Source: a virus (lineage: Duplodnaviria; Caudoviricetes). From it: DNA of 64,000 bases. The stretch lies in the IMG/VR virus record IMGVR_UViG_3300032216_001891, positions 32,001-96,000 of that record. One strand, given 5' to 3'. Positions 7,304 through 27,500 of this stretch are shown piece after piece (the first letter of the stretch is position 1; every line of letters begins with the position of its first letter). The notes below the pieces were generated by a model that was not told the DNA's origin, did no database searches, and saw nothing but the letters and a program-made list of their open reading frames with translations. The position numbers were made by a program, and so were the translations under genes.

Positions 7304-10300
7304 ATGCCATTAGATAAAATAGCAGGAACCAAAATACCCAAATGGGCCACGAGAGAAGGTGTCTCGGGCATCAAGTTTGACACAGCCACATTCATGGGAG
7401 TGGTAAAGGACAACCGAGATCCCCGCAAACTGGGCAGATTACGAGTGTGGATTCCAGAATTTGGCCTAGGCGATCCCAGTGTAGAAACAGCATGGCAAAC
7501 AGTAAATTATGCCAGTCCGTTTTTTGGTGCAACATTTGTGGGAGATAAAACCACAAACAATCAATTTGAAACAACCAATCACACCTACGGCATGTGGATG
7601 GTACCCCCGGATGTTGGTAACCAAGTGCTGTGTACCTTTGTCAACGGAGACCCCGATCGTGGCTACTGGTTTGCTTGTGTCAACCCCACTATAGGGCATT
7701 ACATGGTTCCAGCCTTGGCCGGTGCTAGAAAAACCGACACCGAGTTGGCCAGTGCAGATTTAAAAAGCAGTTTGGTCACTGACGGTAGTCAAGTATTGCC
7801 GGTGGCAGAATACAACGAAAATCGCGACGATGCTTTTGCACCTGATGCTTATAATAACGCTAGGCCCATACACGAATTTCAAGCCAATGTACTGTTTCAA
7901 CAAGGCCTAGACCGAGATGCAGTTAGAGGAGCAATAAGCTCTAATAGCCAAAGAGAAAGTCCCAGTCATGTGTTTGGTATCAGTACTCCGGGACGAGCCT
8001 TGGGCAACGATCCCTCTGACGATCCTGAGTATGAGAAAAAACTAGCCAATGGCTCGATCAATATTCTTGACTACGAAGTCAAGGCTAGAAAAGGTGGTCA
8101 CACCTTTGTCATGGACGACGGTGATGTCACAGGAAATGATCAGTTGGTACGCATACGGTCATCTGCAGGACATCAGATCTTAATGAACGACACCGAAGGC
8201 ATCATGTTCATCATTAACTCCAGTGGCAGTAGCTGGATTGAGTTGAGTAAAAATGGCGACATGAACATCTATAACGGTGGTAGTTTCAGTGTTCGTGCTC
8301 AAGGAGATATAAATCTACGTGCAGACAAGAACGTCAATATCGAAGCCGGCAGTGCTTTGAATTTACGAGGTGGCACCTATGTCAACGCAGTCAGCGCCGA
8401 TATTAATATTTCGGCCACTAGTACCACCAACGTTCACGGAGCTAAAACCAATATTGGTGCCAGCGGCAAATTGATCGTGGGCGGTGGTGTAGTATCTGTG
8501 GGCTCTGACGGTGCCTTGGAGCTCAAAGGCGGCTCTGTGGCACTGGACACTGGCGGAGCCAACAATGCCGGGTCGGGAGTGAGTTTGCAAACTCGACAGT
8601 TTCCCGACACTAGTTACGATACTAAAACTCGACTATGGAACAGTGTAGCTGATCAGGCTGCCAGCATAGTGACAATATTTCCAGCACACCAACCTTGGGT
8701 TAAATCTTCTACACCTGGTGCTGGAACCGAAGCACCTATACAGATATTGCCAGTGAGTGTATGTCCACCTAGAACTGCCGCATCCCCTGGCGACTATATA
8801 TTACCCAAACCCAATGGAAATAAATTAGACCAGGGTAGAGTTGGCATGAATACTGCCAAAGGGTCAGCACCGTGGACCACAGACACAGCATTTTTAGAAA
8901 AAACCAAACAGGTGGCCTCTGCTGTGGGCTTTGCTAGTTATTTAGATTTGTTGGCGGCGATGATGTTGGAAACTATCTACACGTTTGATCCTAACATTAG
9001 GGGTGGATATAAAGACTTGTATGTGGGCCTGATTCAATTTGGGCCAGATGCAGCCAAAGAACAACGCACAACCACACAAGCCTTACAACAACTGAATCGA
9101 GTACAACAATTAGATAATGTTCAAACATATTTGTTAAATCGTAAACGAGAACGCAAGATAACTACTTTTAGACTCTGCGATGTCTATGCTTGTATAAACT
9201 GGCCGGCAGCAGCAGGTCAAGATCTTGGCTATATCTGTTATGGTGGAACCCAAGGTAATCCTGCTGGAAAAACTTATTCTGATCTTCAAGTCACTGCTTA
9301 TACCGCCAACAGTTTATTTGATACTGCTAAAAAAGGCTACATAACCTTGGGCGATTTCCAAACATACATGGAAGGGTATTTAACAAAAGTCAAACAAGCA
9401 CTAGCCAATGCTGGTGCAGTTGATCCCGCAGGAACACTACAATCCGGTTCGGGAATTAAAGTCACAGACAGTTCAGGAAATGCCATAGCTTCAGGATCTA
9501 AAACCACCAGTGCCAACACCGACGTCGGCATCAACAACGCATACGGTCGCACAGTATCATCCAGCTGTCCCAAAGATTGGTTAGGCAAGCAAGAAGTATA
9601 TAAATCTCCAACAGCCATCAGTAGCACAGCCCCCTTGTTGACCCAGGCCTACACTACTAATATGCATGCCGAACTGGGCTATTTTGAAAGCCAGTGGGAC
9701 TATGCCAGCACTGGTGGAAAAACCTCAACACCCGCAGGTGCAACTATTAACGTCGGCACCAAAGGTACAATATTGGTCATGGGCGACAGTATTGCTTATG
9801 GCACCGGCCAAGCACTACAGAAGAAATTGTCCGCAACCAGTGTCATGGCTCGAGTTGGCGACAACAGTACAACCATATTGTCCAATGCCAAAAATCCTCC
9901 AGCTCCGGCTGTGGGACGTGTAGGAACTTATCAAGATTATCAGTACGAAAATGATTGGGTAGGCAAGGTCAAAGTAGCAGTTATATCCTGTGGTAGTAAC
10001 GACATTGTCAAAGGTGTAGGCAACAAGGCACAGTTAATTGAGAACTTAAAAGCCATTAGATCTGCGTTACGAGCAGAAAAATACATTTGGATTTTACCCT
10101 ACGACAGCATAGCCTGCGGAGCCGTAACGCAAGTTGCCAACCTCACCGGCGATAAAACACTGTCTCTAACCGATTACTCTAGTGTTGATACACCACCACT
10201 ACACCCACAAGCCTACCCACCTGTAGCAGTTGCACTACAAAAAATGATAACCGAAATAACAGCTGGATCACCCGGCAGTGACACTACAGCCAAGGCCGCC

Positions 10301-11692
10301 ACACCGGGTGATGGCACAAGAATTGGCAAGTACCAAGTGGATGCTTACTTTTTGGCCGAAGCTGGATATATCAAACCCGATGCTATCAAACAATACGGCG
10401 CTCAAACACTGTCTAAAAATGAAAGTTGGACCGGCAAGGACAGCATACGCAGTCAAAAAGATTTCCTTGCTAATAAACAACTGCAAGATGATTTACAAAA
10501 TAAAGAATTTTTAACCAACTATAAAACACTAGTGTCTCTCAAAGGTATCAAACCCGAAGACGACATTTGCATGGCCGCCGGCATGTTATTTGTAGCACAC
10601 AAATATCGCAGTCCGCAACTGGCCACCGAGTGGCGCCAGACTGGTAAAGTAAAAACACCGCCCACAGTTTCTGGAGAAGCTGGTACTGCTGAAGAATACT
10701 TTAATCACGGTAGATATGCAATTGATGTGCTGAGTGCTCAAGCCATAACCGGCACCAGCAATGCCGCAGGCCCGATTGATCTCAGTATTGATCCCGACAC
10801 AGTGATGCAGTTTAGAGCCAGCGGAACACTGGGCGATCGAGCACACTTTGACGCATCTAATCCTGTACTGCGATCATCTACACTGCAAATGGCCAAGGCC
10901 TACAAGGAAAAGTACGGTAAAAAATTGCCAGTCAATACCTCTTATCGCAGTAATGAAGAACAGGCGGCATTGTATAACGCCTATGTTGCTAGAGGTAAAA
11001 CAGGAATACCTGCAGCACCTCCGGGATCAAGTCAACACAACTTTGGGCAGGCCATGGACATTCAACACGATGTATATGCACTTGACACAGAATTGGGTCT
11101 AGGCAAATACAATTTAAAAACCATCCCCAACGATTGGCCACATATACAAACAATCAACACCAAGGCCTCAGACGGCGACACAACACCTAAATCCAGTGCT
11201 CCGGGTGATCAGCTGGTGGTATTGATCACTGGTTTAGAATCGGCCGGCGAAGCGTACAAGACCGGGGTTCGAGCACTAGCTGCACAATTGACTGGAATGG
11301 GCGCCAGTGCAGAAGTGTTTAGTTGTACTAATATTGCCGGAGCCACAGCCTATGTCACAGCCAATCGTGGAACCAAGAAGGTAATATTAATTGGATTTAG
11401 TAAAGGTGCTGAAATAGTTAATCAAATGGCTGCTACAGGTATGAAAATAGATCTCATGGTGTGCATTGACGGATTCCCCACAGTGGGCATGCGTTTGGCC
11501 AATTTACCGTCAAATGTAGTACGAGCAGTAAATTACTATAATCCACGTAATTACGGTAATTCTGGTTACGGCAATCCTTATCCGGCTCCCCCGGCTGCCC
11601 CAAGAGTTACACACATAGCAAGCAGTGTCAATCATATGGCCATTGTGGCAGCTGTGTCAACTAACATAATCTCTGATGTGAAATCAGCGTAA
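7304..11692 (+). CDS. gp5: Baseplate central spike (gp5/VgrG-like) with C-terminal hydrolase domains
   Basis: OB-fold (DPRKLGRLRVWIP, PPDVGNQV), GHTFVMDD/GHQILM beta-helix, then lysozyme-like, SGNH, M15 peptidase and GxSxG motifs. Confidence 0.85.
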   Translation: MPLDKIAGTKIPKWATREGVSGIKFDTATFMGVVKDNRDPRKLGRLRVWIPEFGLGDPSVETAWQTVNYASPFFGATFVGDKTTNNQFETTNHTYGMWMVPPDVGNQVLCTFVNGDPDRGYWFACVNPTIGHYMVPALAGARKTDTELASADLKSSLVTDGSQVLPVAEYNENRDDAFAPDAYNNARPIHEFQANVLFQQGLDRDAVRGAISSNSQRESPSHVFGISTPGRALGNDPSDDPEYEKKLANGSINILDYEVKARKGGHTFVMDDGDVTGNDQLVRIRSSAGHQILMNDTEGIMFIINSSGSSWIELSKNGDMNIYNGGSFSVRAQGDINLRADKNVNIEAGSALNLRGGTYVNAVSADINISATSTTNVHGAKTNIGASGKLIVGGGVVSVGSDGALELKGGSVALDTGGANNAGSGVSLQTRQFPDTSYDTKTRLWNSVADQAASIVTIFPAHQPWVKSSTPGAGTEAPIQILPVSVCPPRTAASPGDYILPKPNGNKLDQGRVGMNTAKGSAPWTTDTAFLEKTKQVASAVGFASYLDLLAAMMLETIYTFDPNIRGGYKDLYVGLIQFGPDAAKEQRTTTQALQQLNRVQQLDNVQTYLLNRKRERKITTFRLCDVYACINWPAAAGQDLGYICYGGTQGNPAGKTYSDLQVTAYTANSLFDTAKKGYITLGDFQTYMEGYLTKVKQALANAGAVDPAGTLQSGSGIKVTDSSGNAIASGSKTTSANTDVGINNAYGRTVSSSCPKDWLGKQEVYKSPTAISSTAPLLTQAYTTNMHAELGYFESQWDYASTGGKTSTPAGATINVGTKGTILVMGDSIAYGTGQALQKKLSATSVMARVGDNSTTILSNAKNPPAPAVGRVGTYQDYQYENDWVGKVKVAVISCGSNDIVKGVGNKAQLIENLKAIRSALRAEKYIWILPYDSIACGAVTQVANLTGDKTLSLTDYSSVDTPPLHPQAYPPVAVALQKMITEITAGSPGSDTTAKAATPGDGTRIGKYQVDAYFLAEAGYIKPDAIKQYGAQTLSKNESWTGKDSIRSQKDFLANKQLQDDLQNKEFLTNYKTLVSLKGIKPEDDICMAAGMLFVAHKYRSPQLATEWRQTGKVKTPPTVSGEAGTAEEYFNHGRYAIDVLSAQAITGTSNAAGPIDLSIDPDTVMQFRASGTLGDRAHFDASNPVLRSSTLQMAKAYKEKYGKKLPVNTSYRSNEEQAALYNAYVARGKTGIPAAPPGSSQHNFGQAMDIQHDVYALDTELGLGKYNLKTIPNDWPHIQTINTKASDGDTTPKSSAPGDQLVVLITGLESAGEAYKTGVRALAAQLTGMGASAEVFSCTNIAGATAYVTANRGTKKVILIGFSKGAEIVNQMAATGMKIDLMVCIDGFPTVGMRLANLPSNVVRAVNYYNPRNYGNSGYGNPYPAPPAAPRVTHIASSVNHMAIVAAVSTNIISDVKSA

Positions 11693-11713: not shown

Positions 11714-12091
11714 ATGACTACACTATACAAAGGATTCAGCACTGTCAACAGATACAAAAAGTTTCGTGTCACTGACATTGACTTGATCAAACAAGATCTA
11801 ATCAATCACTTTAATATTAAAAAAGGTGAAAAAGTCATGCAACCGGACTTTGGTACTATTATTTGGAGCCTGTTGTTTGAGCCCATGACTGCTACAGTAC
11901 GACAGGCCATCATCGACGATGTAAAAACTGTAGTTGGTTATGATCCGCGTACCAATTTACAAAACATCACCATTAATGAATATCAAAATGGCATACAAAT
12001 AATGGTAGATTTACTGTATATTCCCACCAATCAATTGACTGCATTGAACCTGCAGTTCGATTCTCGCACACAACGACTCACAGTAAGATAG
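11714..12091 (+). CDS. gp25: Baseplate wedge protein gp25-like
   Basis: KGEKVMQPDFGT..LLFEP..YDPR signature. Confidence 0.9.
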   Translation: MTTLYKGFSTVNRYKKFRVTDIDLIKQDLINHFNIKKGEKVMQPDFGTIIWSLLFEPMTATVRQAIIDDVKTVVGYDPRTNLQNITINEYQNGIQIMVDLLYIPTNQLTALNLQFDSRTQRLTVR

Positions 12092-12147: not shown

Positions 12148-15100
12148 ATGTCTATCACTACACGTCAAACAAATTTATTGGTAAATCAGGACTGGACTAC
12201 CCTGTACCAAAGTTTTCAAAATGCCAACTTTCAAAGTTACGACTTTGAAACCATACGCAAAAGCATGATTGATTATTTACGTAACTACTACCCAGAAGAT
12301 TTCAATGATTTTACCGAAAGTTCAGAGTACATAGCACTGATTGACTTGATTGCTTTTTTAGGGCAGAGCCTAGCATTTAGAACAGATTTAAATGCACGTG
12401 AAAGTTTTTTTGACACAGCACAACGACGTGATAGCATTTTAAAATTGGCTAGCTTGATCAACTACAATGCCAAGCGTACAACACCGGCAGCAGGCTATTT
12501 AAAAATTGACAGCATCACCACAAGTGAGAGTGTGACCGACAGCAACGGATTGAATTTAGCCAACCTGTTGATCAATTGGAACGACACCACCAACGAGGAT
12601 TGGCAAGAGCAGTTTACTGCGGTATTTAATGCTGCTTTGATCAGCAATCAAAACATCGGCACTCCGGGTAACACACAAGACATCAACGGTATTTTAACCA
12701 GTGAATACAGCATTAACCTGTTGGGCGGTGTTATTCCCACCTACACTTTTAATGCTACAATAGAAGGTACAAGCACAGCATTCGAAGCGGTGAGTGCCAC
12801 ATCGGTGGGACAAAGTTATGTGTACGAAGCCAGTCCAGCACCCAGTGGTAGATTCAATATTTTGTATCAAAACGATAATCTTGGCAATGGCAGCAACAAC
12901 ACCGGTTACTTTGTTTATTTTAAACAGGGCACACTGAACAATTTAGTGCTAAATCTACAGCAAAGTTTACCCAACCGTGTGGTGAATGTCAATTACGACA
13001 ATATCAACAACACAGATGTTTGGCTATACAAACTAGACAACGCCGGAGTGCCCAGCTCCATATGGAGCAGTGTTCCTGCTGTGGCCGGCATCAATATCAT
13101 TTACAATCAAAGCACCAGTCGTAACCTATATCAAATCAACACAAGAGCCAATGATCAAATTGACTTGGTATTTGGTGATGGTAGTTTTGCCAATATTCCA
13201 CAAGGCAATTTTCAATTATTTTATCGAGTCAGCAACGGATTAAATTACAAAATTACCCCAGACGAAATGCAAAATATTGTAATTGCAATAAACTATGTCA
13301 GCAAAAACAACCGAGTAGAAACACTCACCATGCGTGCCAGTCTATACTACACTGTCACTAATGCTGCCACAAGAGAGTTGATTGATGATATTCGTGTGAA
13401 AGCACCACAGCAGTACTATACACAAAATAGAATGATCACCGGTGAAGACTATAATCTTTTCCCTTATACCAACTTCAGCAGTATTTTAAAAGTCAAGGCA
13501 GTGAACAGAACCAGTTCTGGCATCAGTAGATATCTAGATGTGCTGGATGTCACAGGCAAATATTCCAGCACCAATATGTTTGGCACCGACGGATGGTTAT
13601 ATCAACAAAATTCTGTACCCAGTTCAACGTTTAGTTTTACATCAACTAATGACATAAACAACGTAATTTATAACACAGTAATACCTATTTTAAACAGTAC
13701 TGAAGTCAAGCATTTTTATTATGCCAACTACACAAGATATGCTCCAGCGTCCACAACCACGTGGACTCAAGCCACTGCTGATTCTGGAAGCAGCTCCGGC
13801 TACTTGGTGAATGGCACTGTGATACAAAATGTAGGATATGTAACCAATACTAACTTTAAATACATCACCACCGGGGCACTATTAAAATTTACAGCCGGTA
13901 CAGGCAACTATTTTAACGCACAGAACATAATAGTATCGGGCACTCCTGTATACGCAAACGATAAAAAATACATTTGGTCATTGGTGTCCTCGGTCACCAA
14001 CAGCAACACACTGCAAATAACACAAAATATTCCCACTGGTGCTGTGCTTGAAAGTATTATTCCTGTATTTAAAAATGATCTCAGCAACTTGACTTTTGTC
14101 AACACCATGGTTAATTTGATAAAAAGTTATAAAAACTTTGGGATTAGATACGATGTGCCCGCACAGACTTGGAAGATTATTGCACCGGCTGATTTGAACA
14201 CCACCACTGCGTTTAGCCTGACCAATACTGGTAGCACCACGGGAACTGGATTAGACAGCAGTTGGATAATAGCATTTGCTTATAACGGGGTCAACTATAA
14301 TCTAGCTCATCGTAACTTAAAATATGTATTTGAAAGTTTAGAACAAACACGTTTCTACTTTGATAAAAAAGTAAAAGTATTTGACAGCAAGTCGGGATCA
14401 ACTGTGATTGACCAAGTTTCAATATTAAAAAACAACACAGCACCCGATAGTTTAACCGCAACACTGGGGCAGGATCAACGCTGGTATATTTACGACAATG
14501 TCATTACCGCCGACGGAAGAATCGACTATACACAGGTATTGGTTACCTTTAGTGCTGTTAATAACGATGGTGTTCCTGATGATCCGGATATTTTTAGCAA
14601 CATAGCCAATACCACACCCAGTGGACGATACGTATTTTTCCAACAAGTCACTGATGCCAACACCAATGCTGGGAATTTTTTAACAGCGGCTCCGGTAGAC
14701 AACACATCGATAGTAACAATATACACAACTCAAAGTGCTATATTAGCCAATCAAAATTTATATGTCAACGGGCAAGTATTTTATGCCACCAGTGAAAACA
14801 AATTTTATGTATTGTCAATATCTGTTGCAGGAACACGTACACTTGCACAGTCTACCAGTTACATAGCTGAAATTGGTAGACAAAATTTGAATTTCCAATA
14901 TAGACACAACAGTCCAAACACACATCGTGTAGATCCCAGTCCAAATAATATCATGGACCTGTACTTATTGACTGCATCATATACCTCGGACTACACAGCA
15001 TGGATACGTGACACCACTGATACTCTCACTGAGCCAGCATTGCCCACCAATGAAGAATTAAAATTAGCCTATGGTTCTGGTGCCACCAGCTTGGAAAATT

Positions 15101-15537
15101 ACAAAGCACTCAGTGACACAATTATTTACAATCCTGGTAGATATAAACCAGTATTCGGTGCCAAGGCCAACCCCTCCTTGCAAGCCACATTTAAAGTGGT
15201 TAAAAATCCAAATTTAATCATTAGCGACAACGATGTAATCAGCGGAGTAGTTGTTGCAATCAATACTTATTTTGACACAGCCAATTGGAACTTTGGTGAA
15301 ACCTTTTATTTCAGTGAATTGGCCACTTATTTACACAACGCATTGGCACCAAATGTAGCCAGCATTATTATTGTACCCGCCAGTACTGAGTTGGCATTTG
15401 GCGGACTCATGCAGATCAACGCCAATCCAGATGAAATTATTGTAAGCTGTGCCACAGCCGATAATATACAAATCATCAGTGCTATAACTGCTGCACAAAT
15501 TAATCAGACCTTGGCCGGGTCAAACATCATCGTATAA
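12148..15537 (+). CDS. gp6: Baseplate wedge protein gp6-like
   Basis: DFETIRKSMIDYL, FDTAQRRDSI, FGDG, QNRMITGEDY motifs; follows gp25. Confidence 0.88.
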   Translation: MSITTRQTNLLVNQDWTTLYQSFQNANFQSYDFETIRKSMIDYLRNYYPEDFNDFTESSEYIALIDLIAFLGQSLAFRTDLNARESFFDTAQRRDSILKLASLINYNAKRTTPAAGYLKIDSITTSESVTDSNGLNLANLLINWNDTTNEDWQEQFTAVFNAALISNQNIGTPGNTQDINGILTSEYSINLLGGVIPTYTFNATIEGTSTAFEAVSATSVGQSYVYEASPAPSGRFNILYQNDNLGNGSNNTGYFVYFKQGTLNNLVLNLQQSLPNRVVNVNYDNINNTDVWLYKLDNAGVPSSIWSSVPAVAGINIIYNQSTSRNLYQINTRANDQIDLVFGDGSFANIPQGNFQLFYRVSNGLNYKITPDEMQNIVIAINYVSKNNRVETLTMRASLYYTVTNAATRELIDDIRVKAPQQYYTQNRMITGEDYNLFPYTNFSSILKVKAVNRTSSGISRYLDVLDVTGKYSSTNMFGTDGWLYQQNSVPSSTFSFTSTNDINNVIYNTVIPILNSTEVKHFYYANYTRYAPASTTTWTQATADSGSSSGYLVNGTVIQNVGYVTNTNFKYITTGALLKFTAGTGNYFNAQNIIVSGTPVYANDKKYIWSLVSSVTNSNTLQITQNIPTGAVLESIIPVFKNDLSNLTFVNTMVNLIKSYKNFGIRYDVPAQTWKIIAPADLNTTTAFSLTNTGSTTGTGLDSSWIIAFAYNGVNYNLAHRNLKYVFESLEQTRFYFDKKVKVFDSKSGSTVIDQVSILKNNTAPDSLTATLGQDQRWYIYDNVITADGRIDYTQVLVTFSAVNNDGVPDDPDIFSNIANTTPSGRYVFFQQVTDANTNAGNFLTAAPVDNTSIVTIYTTQSAILANQNLYVNGQVFYATSENKFYVLSISVAGTRTLAQSTSYIAEIGRQNLNFQYRHNSPNTHRVDPSPNNIMDLYLLTASYTSDYTAWIRDTTDTLTEPALPTNEELKLAYGSGATSLENYKALSDTIIYNPGRYKPVFGAKANPSLQATFKVVKNPNLIISDNDVISGVVVAINTYFDTANWNFGETFYFSELATYLHNALAPNVASIIIVPASTELAFGGLMQINANPDEIIVSCATADNIQIISAITAAQINQTLAGSNIIV

Positions 15538-15549
15538 TTGGGAACAGCA

Positions 15550-18500
15550 ATGGCATCAATAAAAACTGCAAATTTTTTACCAGAAGTATTTAGAACGGAC
15601 AACAATCGTAAATTCTTGGGTGCCACCTTAGATCAATTGGTGACCCCACCGGATTTAAGAAAAGTCAATGCCTATGTAGGACGTAAATTTGCACCCACGT
15701 ATCAAAACTCCAATAACTACCAGCCCGAAAGCAGTGGCTTAAGACAGAATTATCAGTTGGAACCCAGTGTGGTTGTTAAAAACAAAACTGGTACAGTTGA
15801 TTTTTTCAGCAGTTACATCGATTTAATTAATCAAATTGCCTACAGTGGTGGTATAACCGACGATCACAGCAGACTATTTGCCACCGAAACCTACAGCTTC
15901 GATGGTTTATTTGATTTTGACAAATTTGTAAATTTTAATCAATACTATTGGCTCACCAACGGGCCTGCAACAGTTGACGTGTTTGGTGCCGGAGTTGATC
16001 AAACTCAAACTTTCACAGTGACAAGAGATGCCGGCACTGGATCTTATCACTTTTCTGGATCAGGCACGGCAAAGAATCCAGCACTGCGTTTGGCACGTGG
16101 CGGTACTTATAAATTTGTAGTGAATCAACCCGGATACCCTTTTTGGATTCAAAGTTCCGCGGGCACATCGGGGTTAAAAAATAATCAAAGCAATCTAAGC
16201 AGCAGAGATATACTGGGAATAGAAAACAATGGCACAGATGTGGGCACAGTTACATTTCGAGTCCCACAAGCCACAGCACAAGATTATTATGTTTATATGA
16301 AGTATCCCAACGACGACATAGTATCGGGCACTGTTGATGCATCAACCGAATTACACTACAGTCAAATTCAAGGTGCCACTCTCAGTCAACTCACAGCACT
16401 GGGTGGACTTGATGGGGTACGCTCACAGTTGTTGGGTAAAACTTTTATTTTTATCAATCAAGACATTGACGACTTGTACTGGACTGCCGGAGGCCTCACA
16501 ATACCAAGAGCCACACGTAGAAATGTTTGGCAAATCCAAGCGGTTGATCCATTGGCTGCTGATCCAGTTATTAATTTGATATCTGTTACCAATGTACTAA
16601 AAAATCAAAAAATTTATGTATCTAGTGGTCAAAACTATGCGGAATATAGTTTTTATTTAGACCTACAATTTTTAACATACAAACAAATTCCAAACATCAC
16701 AGCACCCCTTGATACAATATATTATCAAGACGGAGCAAGTGCCGGCTATGTTGGGCAACTTAATTTGGTCAACATCAACGACAATACATTGAAAGTAGAT
16801 GATGATATTGTTGGCAAATCAGATTATACCAGTCCCAACGGTGTTGTATTCACTAACGGCTTAAAAATTCAGTTTGATGCCAGTGCTGTTCCTGCCACTT
16901 ATGCCAACAGAACATACTATGTTGAGGGAGTAGGAACTGCAATACAATTATTACCGGAAACAGATTTTGTAACACCTGAACCTTATGCTGTCAATGGTAT
17001 TGCATCTCCGGATTATATCACAATCAATCGAGCCAGTCAAGATTTAAATCCTTGGACACGTAGTAACCGTTGGTTTCATATCGACGTTATCAAAGCTGCG
17101 GCTGAATATAACAATGATGTTCCTGTTTTTGATCAAAATGTTAGAGCCAATCGTCCTATAATCGAATTTGAAGCCGATCTACAGCTTTATAATTTTGGTC
17201 GTGTAGCAAAGACTCCGGTGGATATATTTGATTTGACTACAACTGATGCACGTAACACAGTAGAACTCAGTACAACGTTCCAATTAAACGGTGTTTCTTT
17301 ACAAAACGGGCAACGTGTAATCTTTGCCAATGATTTTGATCCCACAGTGAGAAATCAAATATTCATTATCAGTATTTCTGAAATCAATCAAACACCTGTG
17401 GTTACTCTAAGCCCAGCAGAGGACAGTGTAATCAGCACTTTCAATAACTTAATTGTGTTACAGGGCAACAACCGTGGTGTAGAATACTGGTTTGACGGTA
17501 GTGACTGGATTGTTGGACAGCAAAAAACTGGAGTGAATCAAACTCCCATGTTTGATGTGTATGATAACAACGGCATCAGTATTGGCGATACAGATTTGTA
17601 TCCGTTATCTACTTTTGCCACTGCTACTAATAATCTTGGCACGGTAGTGGGCGGAACAAAAATCTTTTCATACCGTACGGGCACTGGGGTTAATGATCAA
17701 ATTCTAGGGTTCCCTTTAAGTTATAGAACATTTAATCAAGTTGGGGATATACAGTTCAACAATGATTTTGATACAGATGTATTTTCGTATACACTTGCTT
17801 CAACAGCAACAACAGAAAATATACATTCCTTGGGGACACTGAGAAAAAATTCTGGACTGGTGAATGGTACGGCAAGAAACACATGGACCAAAGTTGTTGA
17901 GCCCAGTCGTCAATATCAAATAATATCCGGAGTATACAACGGAGTAAATCGTTACTTTGAAATAGACATACGACCCGAGGCTAGAAATACAATACCATAT
18001 TTTAAGGTATTTAAAAACTTTACTGAATTGACCACTGCACAGTTTCAAGTGGTATCGGCCGGTGTTAAACTGTATGTGAAAATAACTGATCCTGATCTAG
18101 TCACTGACGATAAAATAGATATTCTAATTTACAGCAAAACAGTCAGTGCCTTGGGACACTATCAAGTGCCCGATAATCTCAATTTCAACACAGAAAATGC
18201 TAACTTTGCCAGTTTAACTTTGGGTCAATTGCGTAATCATTTAGTAACACTGGTGTCCAATAGCAATCAAGTTACGGGATCGGCATTTGGCGACAACAAT
18301 CTTAGAGATAGGCCTATCAAAGCCCAAGGCGGAAATATTTTACAAAATGCCGGCCCGGTGTTGTACAGTGAATTATTTTTAGTTGATCCTGAAATTAATT
18401 TCTTAAAAGGGCTGGAGCTGGCAAGACACAACTACGGTAGGATTAAAAATAAAATACTTGAATCGGCCATCAAATTAAAAAATATAAACACCGATGATAT

Positions 18501-21500
18501 TCCCGGCATGTTGGACGCTATACTGTTGACCATTAACGGAGTAAAAAACAATTCGTTTCCTTGGTACTACAGTGATATGGTTCCTTATGGCCCGTTAAAA
18601 AACACCATCACTTACAAAGTGATTGAAGCAGAACAAACTGATTATGAAATAACAAATATATTTGTTGACACCAAGTTGAGTAATCAATCAGTATTGGTGT
18701 ATGTCAACAATGTTCAATTAACCAAAGGCACGGACTATGTATTTGATACTACCCGTGCTGGAATCACATTTAAAACTGCATTGGCGGTGGATGATGTCAT
18801 TACAATTAACGAATACAGCAACACAGACGGAAACTATATTCCTGATACTCCTACCAAGTTGGGATTATATCCTAAATTTACTCCTAAGATATATCTAGAT
18901 GAAACTTACGTCACGCCCATTAATGTAATACAAGGACATGATGGTAGTGTAACTCCAGCGTTCAACGATTTTAGAGATCAGTTACTGTTGGAATTTGAAT
19001 TACGCATTTACAATAATATTAAAATTGACACCACATTGGTCAGTGACAATATCTATAACACAGTTCCTGGTAAATTCCGCGAAACCGATTATAGTCTTGC
19101 GGAGTTTACACGGTTATTGAGTAAAAGTTTTTTACAATGGGTCGGGGCCAACAGGGTCGATTTTACCAGTAACACGTATTTTGTTGGCGACGATCCGTTT
19201 ACGTGGAACTTTGCTAGATTCGTAGACACAGTCAACGGAGAAGCGTTGCCGGGAACTTGGCGTGCCATTTATCAATATTTTTACGACACTGTAGCTCCCA
19301 ATACAGCGCCGTGGGAAATGTTGGGCTTTAGTGAAGAACCCGAGTGGTGGGAAACACGTTATGGAGTTGCACCCTACACCGGGGGAAATTTAGTAATGTG
19401 GGGCGATTTAGAAGTTGGTTACGTATGGAACAACGGTGACAGTTACACCGACACAAGATTTGCACGTCCGGGACTGTTGAGTATTATACCTGTGGACGAA
19501 AACGGCAATCTACGTAACCCAGCACAATTTTTAGTAAAGTCTTTCAACAGCAACCAAGCCAACGGTAGTTATGCAGTGGGCCAACAGGGCCCAGTGGAAA
19601 CAGCTTGGAGACGTAGCAGTGATTATCCTTATGCTGTGCAAGAAGCCATTGCTCTAGCCAAGCCGGGATATTTCTTTGGTACACTGATGGATGTCACTAG
19701 ATATTACAAAAATACAACTCTAGATCAATATACATTGAGCGATAGTTTACAACGTATCACTCCGGGGGCAATTCACATCAACGGTGAGAGTTCGGGCTCA
19801 GGCAACTATCGAGTTGCGGGATACATAAACTGGATTGCCGATTACCTACGTAGCCAAGGCATAGAACCAGTGAGCAAAATTACTGGATACTTGGACTTGG
19901 TTACTGTGCAATTGGCCTATAAAATGGCCGGATACAGTGATAAATCATTTTTACAAGTATTGGCCGAACAAGCCAGCCCCACCAGCACCACTAACAGTGT
20001 GGTAATTCCAGCAGAAAACTACACACTGGAATTGTATAAATCAACACCGGTGAAAACAGTCACCTACAGTGCAGTTATAGTAGAAAAAAGCGAAAACGGA
20101 TATACCGTGAGTGGATACGACACTGGTAATCCTTACTTTACAATTATTCCCAGTCTAGCCAATAATAATGCTTATCCCATAACAGTGCTAAACGACACTG
20201 GCATAGTGTATCAAGACTATCAAAAATACAAGATCACTGTGCCTTACGGATTTGAGTTTACCAATAAACAACAAGTGGTGGATTTTTTAATCAGTTATGA
20301 AAGATACTTGGTTGGTAGTGGATTTGTATTTGCTGATAAAGATCCCAACTTGGAAACACAGCGAGACTTTAAACTCAGTGTTCAAGAATTTTTAGCATGG
20401 AGTCAGCAAGGGTGGGCAGTGGGCACTGTTATGATATTGAGTCCGGTGTTGAATCACTTGACTGTAAACAACACCCAAGGAGTTATTGATAAAATAGAAA
20501 ATGCACCATTGCAATCTAGAATTTTAGATCCTGAATTTAATTTTATCAAGTACAACGAACTCACAGTGTCAAGAACCGACAACGTATTCACATTGACTGC
20601 TATATCTGGTCGCACCATAGCGTTGGCTGTGTTGGATGTAGTAGAATACGAACATGTGTTAATTTTTGACAATGTTACAGTGTTTAATGATGTAATTTAT
20701 GCACCAAAGTTGGGCAACAGACAATACAGATTAAAGCTAGTGGGACAAAAAACTGGTGCATGGACCGGTGCTCTTAATCCTCCTGGCTTTGTATACAACA
20801 GTGCCGCAGTGGACGCATGGCAACCTGGAGTTGATTATTTGTTGGGTAGTTTGGTGGTATACAAAAATACCTATTATACCAATACACAGAATTTAACAGC
20901 CACCACAACATTTGTGCCCGCACAGTGGAAACGCCTTGCTAAGAATCAAATTCAAACAGGGTTATTGCCAAATTTCAGTTACAACGCTGGAAAATCATTG
21001 AGATATAATAATTTCAATGACCCAGAATTACAAGGCGACTTTGCTAACTTTGTGGGTAACGAAGTGGGATTTACCCCTAGACAATACTTGACAAACTTTG
21101 GTATTGATACTCCCACACAGGCTAAATTTTATCAAGGGTTTATTAGACAAAAAGGCACACTGAATTCTGTCACAGCATTTACTGCGGCGGGATTCAACGG
21201 TGTAAGCAGCACAGTCAACTTGTATGAAGATTGGGCCATGCGTGTGGGAGAATTTGGTGCATTGAATAACAATAGATATGTTGAACTAATACTCAGCGAG
21301 GGTGTGTTCACGGGCGAGCCCGCTGTGTTTAATTTTTTAAACAACGGAGCTACAACCACTGACAACATCGTTGCTGTTTATCCCGATGACATATACCGGT
21401 CCAGCAAGGGTTACTCTCCTGCAATTTTTAAAGATAGAGACAACTCTAGTTTTTATGAAAATGATTTATTAACTGCTGGATATGTCAATGTTGCCGATGT

Positions 21501-24500
21501 AGATGCACAGATATTTAATATACAAGCATACGGACAACTCAATTCACAATTGGCCAATGTGGCTCCGGGTTACAAAATCTGGGCTGCACGAGACAACATC
21601 ACCACCAGTTGGCAAGTATATCGCGTAAACGAAACTAATGTACTGGTAAATTCAGTGTTCTATAATGTAGATTACACTGTTACAGTAACCACAACCCGAG
21701 CTCATGGTTCAGTTCGTGGTGATTATGTTGTGATCAAAGGATTTGACGGCCGAGTGGATGGGTTTTATCAAGTCTCGTCTGTGGTTGACAATTATAGGTT
21801 CAACATAATCATTGATGTCAACAGTTACCCGGTGCTGAAATCTGCAGGAACCATCACAGGATTGGGTGTTTTGTACCGATTACAATCACTGAGAATAAAA
21901 ACAGCCACAGACTTGAACGCCATCACTCCGTTGAATCAATGGCAGGATGGAGATAAATTATGGGTTGACCAAGATCAAAACACCGCGGGTTGGGTGGTAT
22001 ACAACAAGTCTACACCTTGGGTCACATCCAACGCCAGTGTGACGTCCAATCCTCTCAGTATGCAGTTAGATGCCAACAGTTACATCAGTAATTCAGGATT
22101 TGGTACAGTGTCGACTATAAATCAGACTGGTACATTTGCAGCAGCCAGTATGCCTAATTTAGGTAAGGGCAATGTAATTGCATTTGTCTCTAATATCTCC
22201 AATGGTTATAACTTTACCATGGTGGCTAATCTTGGTGCTCCAGTGGCCAACAGTGTGAGTTTATTTGGTGCCAGTTTAGATTCTGCTGGTAATTTATTAT
22301 ACGTTGGCAATCCCGGCAACGGAAGCACAGAGTATGGTAGAACGCATATCCATAAATTTGATGCTACTGGTACTCCTACTGTAAACACTACTGCTGTTAT
22401 TACTGCCCTCCTACAAGCGTCGGTTGATATTGAACCTGCAAAGACTTTATTTAAAACAACAACAGTTGGTGGAAGGCCACTAGGCGACATTAACAATTCT
22501 GGGACACTATCTCCATTGGATGCCTTGTACTATGGCCAATGGGATGCAGGAACCAACACAGATCCAGGGCAAATTTCTTGGATTACAGGAACGTTAAATC
22601 CATACATATTAGCAAACCCCACCAATTATGGGGCATATCTTAATTACTTCTTTACTTTATCACAAACATTATCGAGCCCATTCACCGGTAATATCGGAGA
22701 TCAATTTGGCTACAGTGTAAGTGCCAGTAGTGATAGTGCTTGGTTATATGTTGGCGCTCCCGGTGCCGGCAATGTGTATGTGTATCATGCCAATGCCAAC
22801 GGTTATTACAGTTATGCCAACACCATTACAGGTAATAGTTATGTCACTTCAGGCAATGCTATATTGGCACGATTTGGCCTTGTAGTTAACACCACCTCCG
22901 AGGGCGATTACACTGCCGTTGGTGCTCCAGGCGAAACTGTCGCAGGCGTATCATCGGCTGGTGCAGTTTATACGTTTAATCGCAGTCAAGAATCATTTGT
23001 TGCCACAGGCAATACAGCATATTATCCACAGTACCCGATCACTGCCAGCACCTTATTGGTAACAGTCAACGGTAATGTTGTAACCACAGGTTACACCAGT
23101 AACAGCAGTGCTGTGACATTTACAGCAGCTCCGGTGGTGGGTACAACAATCACTGTCGACACCAACAAGATACAATTGGTAAAAAAATTAACAGAAACTA
23201 TACCCGGCAGTGGAAATCAATTTGGAACAGTGGTACACATAGCCGGTAATGATGCAGATGTATATGCATCCAGCCCTGGTTATAACGAAGTGGGATACCA
23301 CAGTGGTGTTGTTTATAGATTTGCCAACTACGGTGCCAATTACGGCACAGCCACTGGCAATGTATACGATCCAGTAGTCACTGTGGGCGATAACCTGTAT
23401 ATTAACGGACGACTGGTGACATTTGGAGCCAACGCCACAGGTAGTCTTGTGGGCAATTTGCAATCCATTGTGGCTAATATTAATTCGGCCAATATACCAG
23501 GGATCACCGCAACAGCACAGGATTATGGATTGTTGACTCTAACTAGTAATGTAGCAATACCATACAAAAAATTATTGATTACCCCGGGCACAGGAACAGC
23601 GTTGGCTAATATTGGACTCGATGTTTACACTAATGTTCAATCTATCAAGCACCCTGGTGCTGCCGATGTTAACTCTTTTGGTAGTCAACTTACATCCAGT
23701 GTGGATAGTACCAATTTAATAATCAGTGCTAGTCGAGGGCAAACTAACACAGCAATGACTTTTGATCAAATGCTGACTCGGTTTGATGCAGAAGCTACAT
23801 CATTCAGCGACACACAAGCAGGTTCTGGGGTAGTATACATTTATGGATTGGTTGAAGGATCGTTAACTTCAAGTACATTGGATCAGTATGTATTGGTACA
23901 ACAGTTACAAAACAATGCAGTAAGTTCCAATGATCAATTGGGCAGTGGATTGTCGATGAATGTCGACACAATATTGGTTGGGGCTCCCGGAGACAGCAAT
24001 CATCTAACTACTGATTCAGTGAGCCAAGCATTGACCAGTATTCCCAATGCTGGCACCTACTACACATACAAAAACATCAGCGGTAATGTGGGATGGGACA
24101 TCATCAGCAGTGAACAACCTCGTGTGGACATTGACAGTATTACTAGAATGTACATATACAACAATGTCACTGATACACTATTGACAAACTTTGATCATAT
24201 TGATCCAGTCAAGGGCAAGTTACTGGGCATTGCCGAACAAGACCTAGACTATATCACTGCATACGACCCGGCTGTTTACAATGCCGGCGGTGGGCCCGAA
24301 GCTGGCCCCCTAGGCGGAGCCAGCCCTGACTTTCACTGGGGCGCTGCACAGGTTGGAAAAACTTGGTGGGACACCAGCTTGGTTCGGTATGTTGATTACG
24401 AACAAGGAAATTTAACCTATCGTGCCAATCACTGGGGCGAGATGTTCCCGGGCAGTACAGTGCAAGTATGCGAGTGGGTAGAGAGTTCTGTTGTACCTGA

Positions 24501-27500
24501 CCAATACACCGGCAGTGGTGTACCTCTTTATACAGAATTTCAATCTTATGTTGAAGAAAACTACGTAGATACAGCAACCAAAGTTGTACGCACTAGATAT
24601 TACTTTTGGGTCAAAGATAAAACCACTGTAGAAACAAATTCAACAAGACGAAACAGTGTTAAAATTTTACAAGAAATTATTGCCAACCCCACTGCTCAAT
24701 CGGTACCCTATGCTGCAGTACTACGCAACGATGCTGTGGCTTTATATAATATTGGTGACTACTTAACTGGTGCCGGCAACACAGTGGTGTTTCACGCTGA
24801 TACAGATGCACTCACTAATACCAACATTATACACAACGAATGGCAACTGGTTCAAGAAGGCAACAGCAATAGTTTAATACCTGATAGAATTGTTGAAAAA
24901 ATGATCGACAGTCTAGCCGGAGTGGACCGGTATGGAAATACAATTCCCGCAGTAAATTTATCCCCACAGACACGTATTGGATTAGACTTTACACAAACTG
25001 TGTTTGTGGACAGAATGCTGGCCTTGAAAAACTTTGTCGAGTATGTCAATAATGTAATGATTCAACATCCTATTGTAGAACAACGCAACATCAATAATTT
25101 ATATAGTGCTGAAGCCCAGCCCGACATCACTGAGTATGATCTTGCTATTGCCTCCCGTGCCGAATTGGACTACATCAACACTGCAACTTTATTATCAAAT
25201 TACACTGTGTTAGTAATCGCTGACGAAACACAAAACGAATTATGGACTATGCACACATGGACCGGAACAGCATGGTCCACTGTTCGCACTCAAAGTTATT
25301 ATACTCCGTTTTACTGGAGTTTTGCTGACTGGTACGACAGCACCTACAACTCCAGTGACACCATAAAATATTCGGCCAACACCTATGCCGATTTAGCTTC
25401 TCTAACCCCAACCGTTAATGATTCGGCTCGAGTGGCCAACAGAGGCAATGGTGAATTTGCTGTTTATCGTTATAACGGTACGATGTGGGATTTAGTAGGA
25501 CTTGAAAATGGCACTGTTCAATTCGACAGCACATTGTATACCAGTGCAGTGGCCGGCAACGAGATCAGAATACTATTTGAAACTGTGCGTGATGATATTT
25601 TTGTCGACACACTGATTGGTAACTTTAACGGATTGTTCTTTTATTTGATCAACTACATTCTAACCGAACAAAAATCTGTGGATTGGATATTTAAAACCAG
25701 CTTTGTTACAGTGTTACATCAACTAAAAAAATTAGAACAATTCCCAGCGTATATTCAAGACAACCAAACATACTATGAGAATTACATCAACGAGGTCAAA
25801 CCGTATAGAACCAGCATACGTGAATATTTGATTAATTATCAAGGCAGTGATGCGTTTTCTGGAGACATTACAGACTTTGATATACCAGCAACTTATATTG
25901 CCAACATCAACGCTTATCGTAGTCCAGATGGCAGTTTACCGTCAGACAGCTACAGTTTAACTACATTACCTCAATATAGCCAGTGGAATAACAATCACAG
26001 TTACAGTATCAATGCAGTTACAGTGAGTAACTCGGGTGCTAACTACTACACAACTCCCACAATTACAGTGATCGGTGGTGGTGGTACAGGTGCCACTGTA
26101 GAGGCAGTACTTGATGTAGTCAGCAACACTATTGCTAGATTTGATGTTGTTAATGCAGGATCGGGATATACTTCTACACCCACAATACAAATCAATGGAT
26201 CGGGCATAAACGCTGCTGGTTATCCAAAATTAGTGTCTGAGCAATACATCACCAGTGTGCCCTTACAAACTATAACTCTTGTGGGCAACGCTGTTGTTTA
26301 TGTAGGCAACATTATTACACAGCCCCTCACAGGTGCATCGGGGGTAGCCTACACAGCATCTACCGGCAACATTATTACTTTGAAAGATGTTGTTGGTACA
26401 TTTGTCAGCAACCAATGGTTATTTAGCGACTCTAGTAATTTATCGATACGCCCGGGAGTTGCCACAGTGTCAATGAAGTTGACCGGCAATCTTTCTGCTT
26501 ATACAGGCAATATTATTACCCAACCCGCCAGCGGTGCTCGAGCAGAGGTATATTCCGACTCCTCAGGAAAAGTCGTATCACTGTGGAACTACTCGGGAAC
26601 TTTTATTGGTAACGCATATCTATATAGAAATGGCTCAAATCTCAATGTTAGGCCCGCATACTACACTGTTTCATCAGTTCCACTCGCTGTTCCTTATACC
26701 ACTTTTGTTGATCAAAGTTACAATAAAGTTAGAACATTTACCACGCACGTAAAATTTGATAGAACCTCATATTCCAGCAATATTTCAGCATGGAAACCCA
26801 ACATCACTGTGACAGCAAATTCACGTGTGAGCTATCAAGGCAGTGCATACCAGGCCAATTCTACAGTGTACAGCAGTGCAACACTTAAATTAACTGCCAA
26901 CGTTTCGGCCAATGTGGGCGACTATATCACACAGAGCAACAACTCCACAGCCAATGCTAGAATCATTTCAATTGCCAGCAACAGTTTAATCACAGTGGCC
27001 AATTTGAGTGGTAATTTTATAAGACGTACAGGTAATATTGTAATTAATGGAGTCACTTCTATTGCTGCACCAATATCGGTTACAAATATATTTGACTATG
27101 GAAAGTATTCATTATTAGCAACTGCCAATTTAACCAATGCCAGCGATCGAATTACTGCTGCTTATCAACCTGGCTCGGGCATGCCAAGTTTAGACCTAGC
27201 ACAGTTAATGTCGGGAATAGAGTATCCGGGTGTACAAGTACAGGGTGTAAAATTTGGAGCTACAACTTCAAATATTTCATCTAACGTACTGTATTATTAC
27301 AGCAGTACTTCAACCTTGTATAGTTCCAATTTGGCCTTGATTGATTTTACCATGTATGGGCTACAACCTAAATTACCCGTATCTGTTGTTAATAACGATA
27401 CCGGATTTAGAAGTAATGTTACTATATTAAATATCACTCCAGGATCAATATTTTTAGTTGGATCGATGCCCGACATCACACTGGGCTCCAACGTCAGCAT

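Follow-up and report, generated by a model that had tools for sequence, protein, structure and literature searches.

The 64,000-nucleotide stretch of DNA analysed here (positions 32,001 to 96,000 of the IMG/VR virus record IMGVR_UViG_3300032216_001891; hereafter the window) contains at 7304–11692 (+) a single open reading frame (ORF) of 1462 amino acids (aa), in which a domain of the SGNH esterase type is nested inside a lysozyme-like domain. The product is a predicted central spike or baseplate hub protein of the gp5/VgrG-like kind. Its N-terminus matches the PF04717 OB domain above the cut-off (E-value, E, 2.7e-8), phrog_13211, annotated as 'baseplate hub subunit and tail lysozyme', covers aa 31–408 (E 1e-35), and weak beta-helix matches reach about aa 480. 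A gp25-like wedge gene (11714–12091) and then a gp6-like wedge gene (12148–15537) lie 3' of the spike gene, and five related contigs, as well as the gene table of a sixth, show this spike and baseplate gene order unchanged.

Both motifs of the lysozyme-like domain are present in this one ORF, with the insert between them. ELGYFESQWDY is at aa 790–800 (nucleotides 9671–9703), RIGKYQ at aa 1006 (nucleotide 10319) and WTGKD at aa 1042 (nucleotide 10427), so that 205 aa separate Y800 from R1006. A first-pass annotation, made from the window sequence, had put this separation at about 210 aa and had proposed that the two segments are normally close in sequence; both points hold. A homolog search restricted to spike aa 765–1160 found 78 homologous spike proteins, which were aligned with the window. 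Five of these (P0004–P0008) span the whole segment and are 62–89% identical to it, while the remainder cover approximately 36–47% of it, with a junction that in most is like ...AELGYFESQFDYSMVSEDGTRIGKYQVDA..., without the insert. From the Ser of FES to the Gly of GKYQ there are 12–14 intervening residues in 65 proteins, 17 in one and 22–27 in seven, compared to 205–218 in the six carriers (the window and P0004–P0008). This difference in spacing indicates a true domain insertion, rather than the chance occurrence of a motif pair. The orthologs without the insert that the annotation had suggested looking for therefore exist, with 73 proteins lacking the SGNH insert at this junction.

The insert enters at the turn of the first beta-hairpin, which lies six to ten residues past the presumed catalytic Glu. 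The same hairpin is expanded by 22–27 residues in P0012, P0013, P0015, P0017, P0018, P0019 and P0049. These seven are on another branch than the carriers, six of them forming one well-supported clade, and the hairpin that received the SGNH insert seems to be a hotspot for insertions.

The fold lists of the model of the whole window segment are filled by SGNH matches, therefore an ortholog without the insert was folded in order to assess the flanks. The uninterrupted domain of P0022 (aa 734–930; L006:5190-5780), as modelled, is one compact domain with a predicted local distance difference test score (pLDDT) of 94.8 and a predicted template modelling score (pTM) of 0.89. The top 15 rows of its VIA-align comparison comprise 11 lytic transglycosylases, a goose-type lysozyme and three further enzymes, namely a lysozyme-fold chitinase, the leech destabilase and a GH124 cellulase. 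Scores are Z 8.0–11.2 over 118–148 aligned residues, nearly all spanning residues 1–195, and include 7lam (Z 11.2, root mean square deviation, rmsd, 3.1) and phiKZ gp144 (Z 10.0). Foldseek lists MltE, phiKZ gp144, goose lysozymes, MltC and MltF at E 8e-3 and upward, with MltE and gp144 the best (E approximately 8e-3, probability 0.94–1.0). At the sequence level the lysozyme-like domain has no Pfam SLT match and nothing meaningful in NCBIfam, and a profile of the family searched against solved structures returned two chance-level rows only and no solved lysozyme. Alignment of the family by hhalign to the SLT-like domain of the same spike is not significant (probability 0.4, E 0.15); this single non-significant alignment sets E-S on E-T and GKYQ on GLIQ. 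The C-flank is matched at aa 1008–1140 by phrog_27932, again annotated as 'baseplate hub subunit and tail lysozyme'. By modelled fold, Glu-Ser pair and annotation context, the flank family is a divergent GH23-like lysozyme or lytic transglycosylase.

In the window model all helices, strands and isolated bridges of the flanks are in register with those of P0022, with an offset of -10 on the N-terminal side of the insert and +187 on the C-terminal side. The isolated beta-bridge that immediately follows the E-S helix is at residue 49 of the ortholog domain and residue 39 of the window segment, and the two short strands that follow the insert, at 55–56 and 61–62 in the ortholog, are at 242–243 and 248–249 in the window. 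This is consistent with the split flanks of the window keeping a single lysozyme-like fold. The proposal that the flanks fold as one domain is thus supported by the compact GH23-like unit of P0022, and for the window itself by way of the secondary structure register. The C-flank is modelled at pLDDT 92–98 (for the N-flank helix see Table 1). Glu795-Ser796 (codons 9686–9691) ends helix 17–32 of the model and is invariant in 20 aligned proteins; the invariant segment residues in these 20 sequences include E26, L27, E31 and S32. Between carriers and non-carriers 44 flank positions are invariant, including E790, E795, S796 and the G-K-Y of GKYQ. The ratio of nonsynonymous to synonymous substitution rates (dN/dS) is 0.02–0.04 for the N-flank and 0.03–0.06 for the C-flank, the lowest in the spike protein.

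The insert itself was modelled within aa 765–1160, which were folded with AlphaFold on an alignment in which both parts had been checked by eye. Mean pLDDT of this model is 87.3, with disorder only in the two linkers and at the C-terminal end. The SGNH domain is at pLDDT 90–98, and the linkers fall below 50 on both sides of it, at about aa 806–810 and 991–1002. All 35 of the Foldseek matches of the window model at E <= 1e-3 are SGNH enzymes or SGNH-based designs. The highest VIA-align scores of the insert are to 1yzf (Z 15.5, rmsd 4.2, 153 aligned), the OatA C-terminal domain 6vjp (Z 15.3, rmsd 2.4, 138 aligned) and 4rsh (Z 15.0), with PatB at 13.2 and Ape1 at 12.5–12.9. In sequence the domain is a divergent SGNH member, since the single sequence scores 21.8 bits against Pfam Lipase_GDSL_2, below the gathering cut-off of 32.9 (E 2.9e-4), yet a profile of the subfamily, which matches spike aa 815–979, reaches solved SGNH enzymes at E 1e-6. 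A phmmer search of the single window segment against solved structures found no match.

Blocks I, II, III and V of the SGNH family are all present in the insert, and the earlier proposal of a complete SGNH domain with flexible linkers between the two motifs is borne out. G827-D828-S829, G852, G897-S-N899-D900 and H967-P968 are conserved in 34–36 of 36 subfamily sequences (the Ser829 codon is at 9788–9790 and that of His967 at 10202–10204). All six carriers conserve the Ser, Gly, Asn and His of SGNH. From three pairs with unsaturated dS, the SGNH domain has a dN/dS of 0.10–0.12; the N-side linker is at 0.04–0.09 and the C-side linker is fast evolving at 0.31–0.37. The nested domain is apparently, on the conservation of its catalytic blocks, a complete and active esterase. 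An OatA/PatB-like acetyltransferase, a reading raised by OatA-C as a top structural match, is unlikely: the insert has the block III Asn, and neither the virion nor the periplasm is expected to supply an acetyl donor. The nested copies also have a lineage-specific loop of approximately 20 residues between blocks II and III (window 9896–9964, aa 865–887), modelled as a beta-hairpin (AVGRV / QDYQY). The GRVGTYQ within this loop was considered as a duplicated target site, matching TRIGKYQ at 5 of 11 residues; it is not kept in P0006 or P0008 and is probably a chance likeness.

In a tree of the flank columns the six carriers group with P0009 and P0010, both of which are without the insert, in an eight-member clade (99% support). 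Constraining the six carriers to be monophyletic gave a better likelihood, and the approximately unbiased (AU) test did not reject it (p 0.58). A single gain of the insert is the simplest reading compatible with this tree. Carriers share 61–88% identity with one another. With a hidden Markov model (HMM) of the insert, un-nested members of the same SGNH subfamily were detected in twelve other orthologous spikes. In P0016 the SGNH domain comes immediately behind the lysozyme-like domain, and in the other eleven it is at the extreme C-terminus, behind the M15 peptidase. Spikes of different build have it ahead of the lysozyme, either in tandem with a complete lysozyme-like domain (P0087, P0120) or with a more distal GH24 lysozyme (P0191, P0208). 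Nesting is therefore one of at least three placements of a mobile SGNH module. The nested copy is approximately 36–41% identical to most of the C-terminal spike copies, 31–35% identical to three of them and 40–44% identical to its closest other relatives, and with only 31–44% identity to the other copies it has not been recently copied from any of these. The closest SGNH outside of the carrier clade, at 44% identity, is aa 823–960 of P0095 (L011:517-3879), a 1120-aa metagenome protein on a 4 kb contig that also has weak GNAT acetyltransferase and DUF6886 matches.

Table 1. Predicted domains and linkers of the spike protein, with positions in the window.
Feature	Residues (aa)	Position	Strand	Basis
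N-terminal OB fold and beta-helix	1–480	7304..8743	+	PF04717, phrog_13211; dN/dS 0.06–0.08
First, uninterrupted SLT-like domain	520–735	8861..9508	+	phrog_196, phrog_4928
N-flank of split lysozyme-like domain	776–801	9629..9706	+	invariant residues, pLDDT 84–92
N-side linker	802–822	9707..9769	+	pLDDT < 50 at segment residues 42–46
Putative nested SGNH esterase domain	823–985	9770..10258	+	fold, profile, catalytic blocks
C-side linker	986–1003	10259..10312	+	low complexity, pLDDT < 50 at segment residues 227–238
C-flank of split lysozyme-like domain	1004–1145	10313..10738	+	GKYQ strand, WTGKD, helical lobe
VanY / M15-type peptidase domain	1182–1301	10847..11206	+	PF02557 E 4.7e-8, above cut-off; phrog_2649 endolysin
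C-terminal alpha/beta-hydrolase-like domain	1340–1462	11321..11689	+	GFSKG at 1364

The remaining domains of the spike are listed in Table 1. The SLT-like domain has E-T at 556–557 and GLIQF at 575 and an ESM Atlas feature score of 0.95. The clusters of 28 of its 30 ESM Atlas matches have PF01464 SLT in a third to half of their members, and the equivalent domain of ortholog P0010 matches Pfam SLT at E 3e-4, just under the gathering score. This domain is a mosaic: its dN is 0.40–0.43 against L007 and L008 and only 0.09 against L009, while the rest of the spike protein shows the reverse, L007 and L008 being otherwise the closest and L009 otherwise distant. This indicates recent module exchange between phages. 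In ortholog P0011 a GH24 lysozyme occupies the SLT-like domain slot. At the other end of the protein, the C-terminal domain has a borderline BAAT_C match only (E 4.6e-4, 20.7 bits against a cut-off of 20.9) and is possibly a second esterase or lipase at the end of the spike. Judged by protein length, it is found in P0009 and the carriers and is absent from most orthologs.

The virus record holding the window is 154,554 bases long and estimated to be 44% complete. Baseplate proteins of the window share 25–37% identity with their counterparts in Rak2, 121Q, PA5oct and Atu_ph07-type jumbo phages, and spike homologs were found on metagenome contigs of up to 366 kb, therefore the source is an uncultured jumbo myophage. 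Megablast of the spike gene against phage records found no match. Directly 3' of the gp6-like wedge gene is an ORF of 4301 aa (window 15538–28443, +). A second, weak match to the SGNH segment is present in the same record at G000:C1:96535-96786 (-), approximately 535 bases past the window end, within a 147-aa open frame (E 3e-4, 36% identity over 91 residues).

The proteins to which the SGNH subfamily is fused bear on what the esterase acts on. Among 48 cluster representatives of the subfamily, the partner is PG_binding_1 in 8, LysM in 8, Phage_lysozyme2 in 6, a GH24 lysozyme in 2, a glucosaminidase in 1, GH19 in 1 and a spike OB fold in 4. The bacterial members are LysM-SGNH proteins of approximately 330–360 aa. 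That of Limnohabitans sp. T6-20 is 31% identical to the window SGNH over the whole domain (E 2e-22), and is encoded within a cluster adjoining mnmA (L020:2194-9828) that reads glucosaminidase, 572-aa GDSL protein, DHHW, MBOAT, glucosaminidase, LysM-SGNH and SLT, with the DHHW and MBOAT matches at E 1e-57 and E 8e-27. The cluster is found in eight of the ten closest genome loci, from Limnohabitans, Comamonadaceae metagenome-assembled genomes (MAGs) and Polaromonas, down to 46% identity. The other two genome loci are cut at the cluster side, and SLT is seen where the contig extends. Three metagenome contigs have at least the MBOAT-DHHW core beside the SGNH gene. Beyond L020 the cluster was seen in L019, L021–L024, L026, L028, L012 and L014; the L. 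parvus II-B4 locus (L023) appears to have its LysM-SGNH frame broken up into two ORFs.

An MBOAT protein together with an SGNH-type transferase is established machinery for the O-acetylation of wall glycans. Ape1 is an SGNH O-acetyl-peptidoglycan esterase encoded beside patA-patB, PatA-PatB acts on peptidoglycan, and O-acetylation of N-acetylmuramic acid (MurNAc) at C-6 inhibits both lysozymes and lytic transglycosylases (PMC6174289). The linkage partners of the bacterial homologs are MBOAT and DHHW, not the DUF459/PatB family, and by analogy the bacterial cluster looks like a module for wall-glycan O-acetylation and de-O-acetylation comparable to patA-patB-ape1, with a DHHW-family transferase in a Gram-negative setting. 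On the domain fusions and this bacterial genomic context, the best-supported function that we infer for the nested SGNH domain is that of a wall-glycan de-O-acetylase. Peptidoglycan is the likeliest substrate, because the partners are LysM, PG_binding_1, SLT and lysozyme domains. No characterised example of a phage enzyme removing peptidoglycan O-acetylation was found in the literature searched, the coverage of which was incomplete.

Taken together, the interpretation that is modestly favoured is that an SGNH module was inserted once into a GH23-like domain of the spike, with both left intact, and that it removes O-acetyl groups from the wall, the benefit being one of co-delivery. The spike would carry a chain of envelope-degrading domains, presumably delivered to the periplasm on tail contraction. 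The module would have entered the beta-hairpin right after the catalytic Glu-Ser helix in a single event, and both partners would have remained intact, the flanks keeping their lysozyme-like fold and the insert all of the SGNH catalytic blocks. The SGNH domain would most likely strip O-acetyl groups off the cell-wall glycan (6-O-acetyl-MurNAc of peptidoglycan), which would let the two glycan-cleaving domains and the M15 peptidase open the wall. Nesting would keep the esterase, tethered flexibly at both ends, close enough to reach the cleft. Since the same module has two other placements in this spike family, the likely point is co-delivery and not a composite active site, and since twelve spikes have an un-nested SGNH domain, nesting is not required for any cooperation. 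The first-pass annotation had the insert de-O-acetylating its substrate next to the glycosidase active site. The O-acetyl esterase part of that proposal is supported by the fusions and the MBOAT-DHHW context; placement beside the cleft is not, given a pTM of 0.62 for the window model, and the twelve un-nested spikes make it unnecessary.

Several observations weigh against this interpretation. The orientation between the domains is not confidently predicted (pTM 0.62, with long disordered linkers), and how the window flanks contact each other, and where the two active sites lie with respect to one another, are model-based suggestions. Asp962 is conserved, but in five of six carriers it lies at His-5, through a Pro-Pro insertion, compared to the canonical D-x-x-H; P0007 alone of the carriers keeps the canonical spacing, as D-G-L-H. 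Profile matches to Ape1 (E 0.06 for 4k3u and 0.18 for 8gld) are weaker than those to lipases and TesA. By fold and profile together, OatA, TesA and acetyl-xylan esterases score as well as or better than Ape1, thus Ape1 is not told apart by these searches from the rest of the SGNH esterases or transferases. PatA1-PatB1, where PatB1 is of the DHHW family, is the only characterised MBOAT-DHHW pair and acetylates the secondary cell-wall polysaccharide of Bacillus, not peptidoglycan (PMC9487903). The bacterial context therefore points to wall glycan, and not specifically to peptidoglycan.

It is quite conceivable, although somewhat short of probable, that the nesting has no mechanistic meaning. The spike would then be a shuffled array of independent enzymes in which the SGNH module landed by chance in a permissive surface hairpin, where it works as it does when appended elsewhere, whatever its substrate. 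The twelve orthologous spikes with an un-nested SGNH domain fit this account, as do the tandem arrangements before a lysozyme-like domain (P0087, P0120) or GH24 (P0191, P0208) and the 22–27-residue expansions that the same hairpin holds in another clade. The linkers are long and disordered and the pTM is 0.62, and exchange of modules is evident from the SLT-like domain (dN 0.40 against L007 and 0.09 against L009). However, the nested form has persisted over a divergence of 61–88% identity under purifying selection, and the N-side linker is itself conserved, with its dN/dS of 0.04–0.09. Chance nesting is also compatible with the favoured interpretation of a co-delivered wall de-O-acetylase, rather than opposed to it.

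Action of the SGNH domain on an ester other than those of peptidoglycan, met earlier during entry, is considered unlikely, but has evidence in its favour. The target would be O-acetyl groups of the lipopolysaccharide (LPS) O-antigen or capsule, or else acyl esters in lipids or lipoproteins of the outer membrane. The phage SGNH domains that have been characterised are tail-fibre deacetylases of surface polysaccharides, and G7C gp63.1 (4qnl) matches the insert at Z 11.6; tailspike LPS deacetylases have been reviewed (PMC5380687). TesA-type lipid esterases match the profile at E 5e-5 to 4e-3. Coming after the beta-helix, the enzyme array may be located at the tip and be the first part to touch the outer membrane; a possible alpha/beta hydrolase forms the end of the spike, and the characterised DHHW enzyme acts on a wall polymer that is not peptidoglycan. 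Against this, the fusion partners of the subfamily are overwhelmingly peptidoglycan-binding or peptidoglycan-cleaving, the bacterial members carry LysM and neighbour SLT and glucosaminidase genes, and all of the other identifiable domains of the spike are peptidoglycan enzymes.

It is very improbable that the insertion inactivated the lysozyme-like domain, leaving the flanks as a scaffold, or that the SGNH domain is a non-catalytic binding module. In favour of this, 200 aa inserted six to ten residues past the catalytic Glu could disturb the cleft, the second, uninterrupted SLT-like domain could make the split one dispensable, and the Asp-His spacing is non-canonical. Against it, carriers and non-carriers have Glu795-Ser796, GKYQ and another 40 flank positions in common without variation, flank dN/dS (0.02–0.06) is the lowest of the protein, the SGNH Ser, Gly, Asn and His are conserved in every carrier at a dN/dS of 0.11, and model confidence is high for flanks and SGNH domain alike.

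A broader proposal extends the favoured interpretation, and is put forward as a tentative and rather doubtful one. It holds that the spike-borne SGNH subfamily may be a widespread and as yet uncharacterised group of phage peptidoglycan O-acetylesterases, an answer to wall O-acetylation that was taken up on at least five occasions beside or within lysozyme domains. Its cellular relatives may mark an unrecognised MBOAT-DHHW cluster for the O-acetylation of peptidoglycan and its de-O-acetylation in freshwater Comamonadaceae (Limnohabitans and relatives). The nested form may be a tethered two-step machine that couples de-acetylation and cleavage on the same strand.

Peptidoglycan O-acetylation is a well-known shield against lysozyme and a control on bacterial lytic transglycosylases. 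If the nested esterase removes O-acetylation from the wall, the spike would show how phages breach modified walls. It would also be a natural design for bifunctional lysins that unite esterase and glycosidase in one fold and are of use against lysozyme-resistant bacteria. In its architecture, nature provides a clean case of a domain-in-domain insertion that is tolerated a few residues from a catalytic residue, for which orthologs with the insert, without it and with the module placed elsewhere are available for comparison. On the bacterial side, the MBOAT-DHHW, LysM-SGNH, SLT and glucosaminidase cluster suggests a wall O-acetylation system in abundant freshwater bacteria of the Limnohabitans type. 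A family of phage peptidoglycan de-O-acetylases with a matching host cluster is possible. An SGNH esterase nested in the lysozyme-like domain of a spike appears to be an undescribed layout, though made of familiar parts; no description of an SGNH domain nested in a lysozyme-like fold was found in the literature searched, coverage of which was incomplete.

Among known systems, the same lysozyme-like family is present in the gp5 of T4-like phages of Rhizobium, Sinorhizobium, Agrobacterium and Ochrobactrum (phiM9 gp069, OLIVR5 gp144, ORM_20). These have K-E-S-S-G-x-Y, then G-x-Y/W-Q, then W-T-G-K/R, and are 33–37% identical to the window C-flank. Their domain is uninterrupted, with the motifs approximately 15 residues apart, is located before the beta-helix and has no SGNH. 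The GH23 enzymes Slt70, MltE, MltC, Cj0843c and phiKZ gp144 match the whole uninterrupted ortholog domain in fold (Z 8–11), and share with it a Glu-Ser pair that ends the first long helix and is followed by a small beta-sheet with a G-x-x-Q motif. They differ in sequence, the flank family matching neither Pfam SLT nor any solved structure at that level.

The SGNH domain resembles Ape1 of Neisseria and Campylobacter (PDB 4k3u, 8gld) in its fold, its catalytic blocks and its proposed clearing of 6-O-acetyl groups for lytic transglycosylases. In addition, the bacterial homologs of the phage domain adjoin a pair of MBOAT and SGNH-type transferase, as ape1 adjoins patA-patB. There is, however, no specific sequence kinship (profile E 0.06–0.18), and the Z of 12.5–12.9 is below that of many unrelated SGNH enzymes. 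Ape1 is a free periplasmic enzyme, the SGNH domain of which itself hosts an inserted carbohydrate-binding module (PMC9487903), whereas the phage SGNH domain is compact, is itself the guest and is carried on a virion.

Like T4 gp5 and the 'evolved' VgrG proteins, the spike has a membrane-puncturing OB fold and beta-helix that would carry a peptidoglycan-cleaving domain into the periplasm. In T4 gp5 a single GH24 lysozyme stands between OB fold and helix, whereas in the spike described here the helix is followed by as many as five enzyme domains, in the manner of VgrG effector extensions, the split domain has a GH23-like fold and one domain is nested. Lysins that are virion-associated and have two lytic domains are already known, and phi11 Gp44 (Tal) of Staphylococcus combines, like the spike here, a virion-borne peptidoglycan hydrolase, in its case an endopeptidase, with an SGNH hydrolase, the latter of unproven substrate (PMC5380687). 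That phage is a siphovirus of a Gram-positive host, in which the domains are in tandem and not nested, and the likeness is by description rather than by sequence. G7C gp63.1 and the tail-fibre SGNH deacetylases likewise are virion SGNH esterases that act on an acetylated envelope glycan (4qnl, Z 11.6). They are part of receptor-modifying tail fibres acting on O-antigen or capsule, whereas the SGNH domain described here is on the central spike, among peptidoglycan enzymes.

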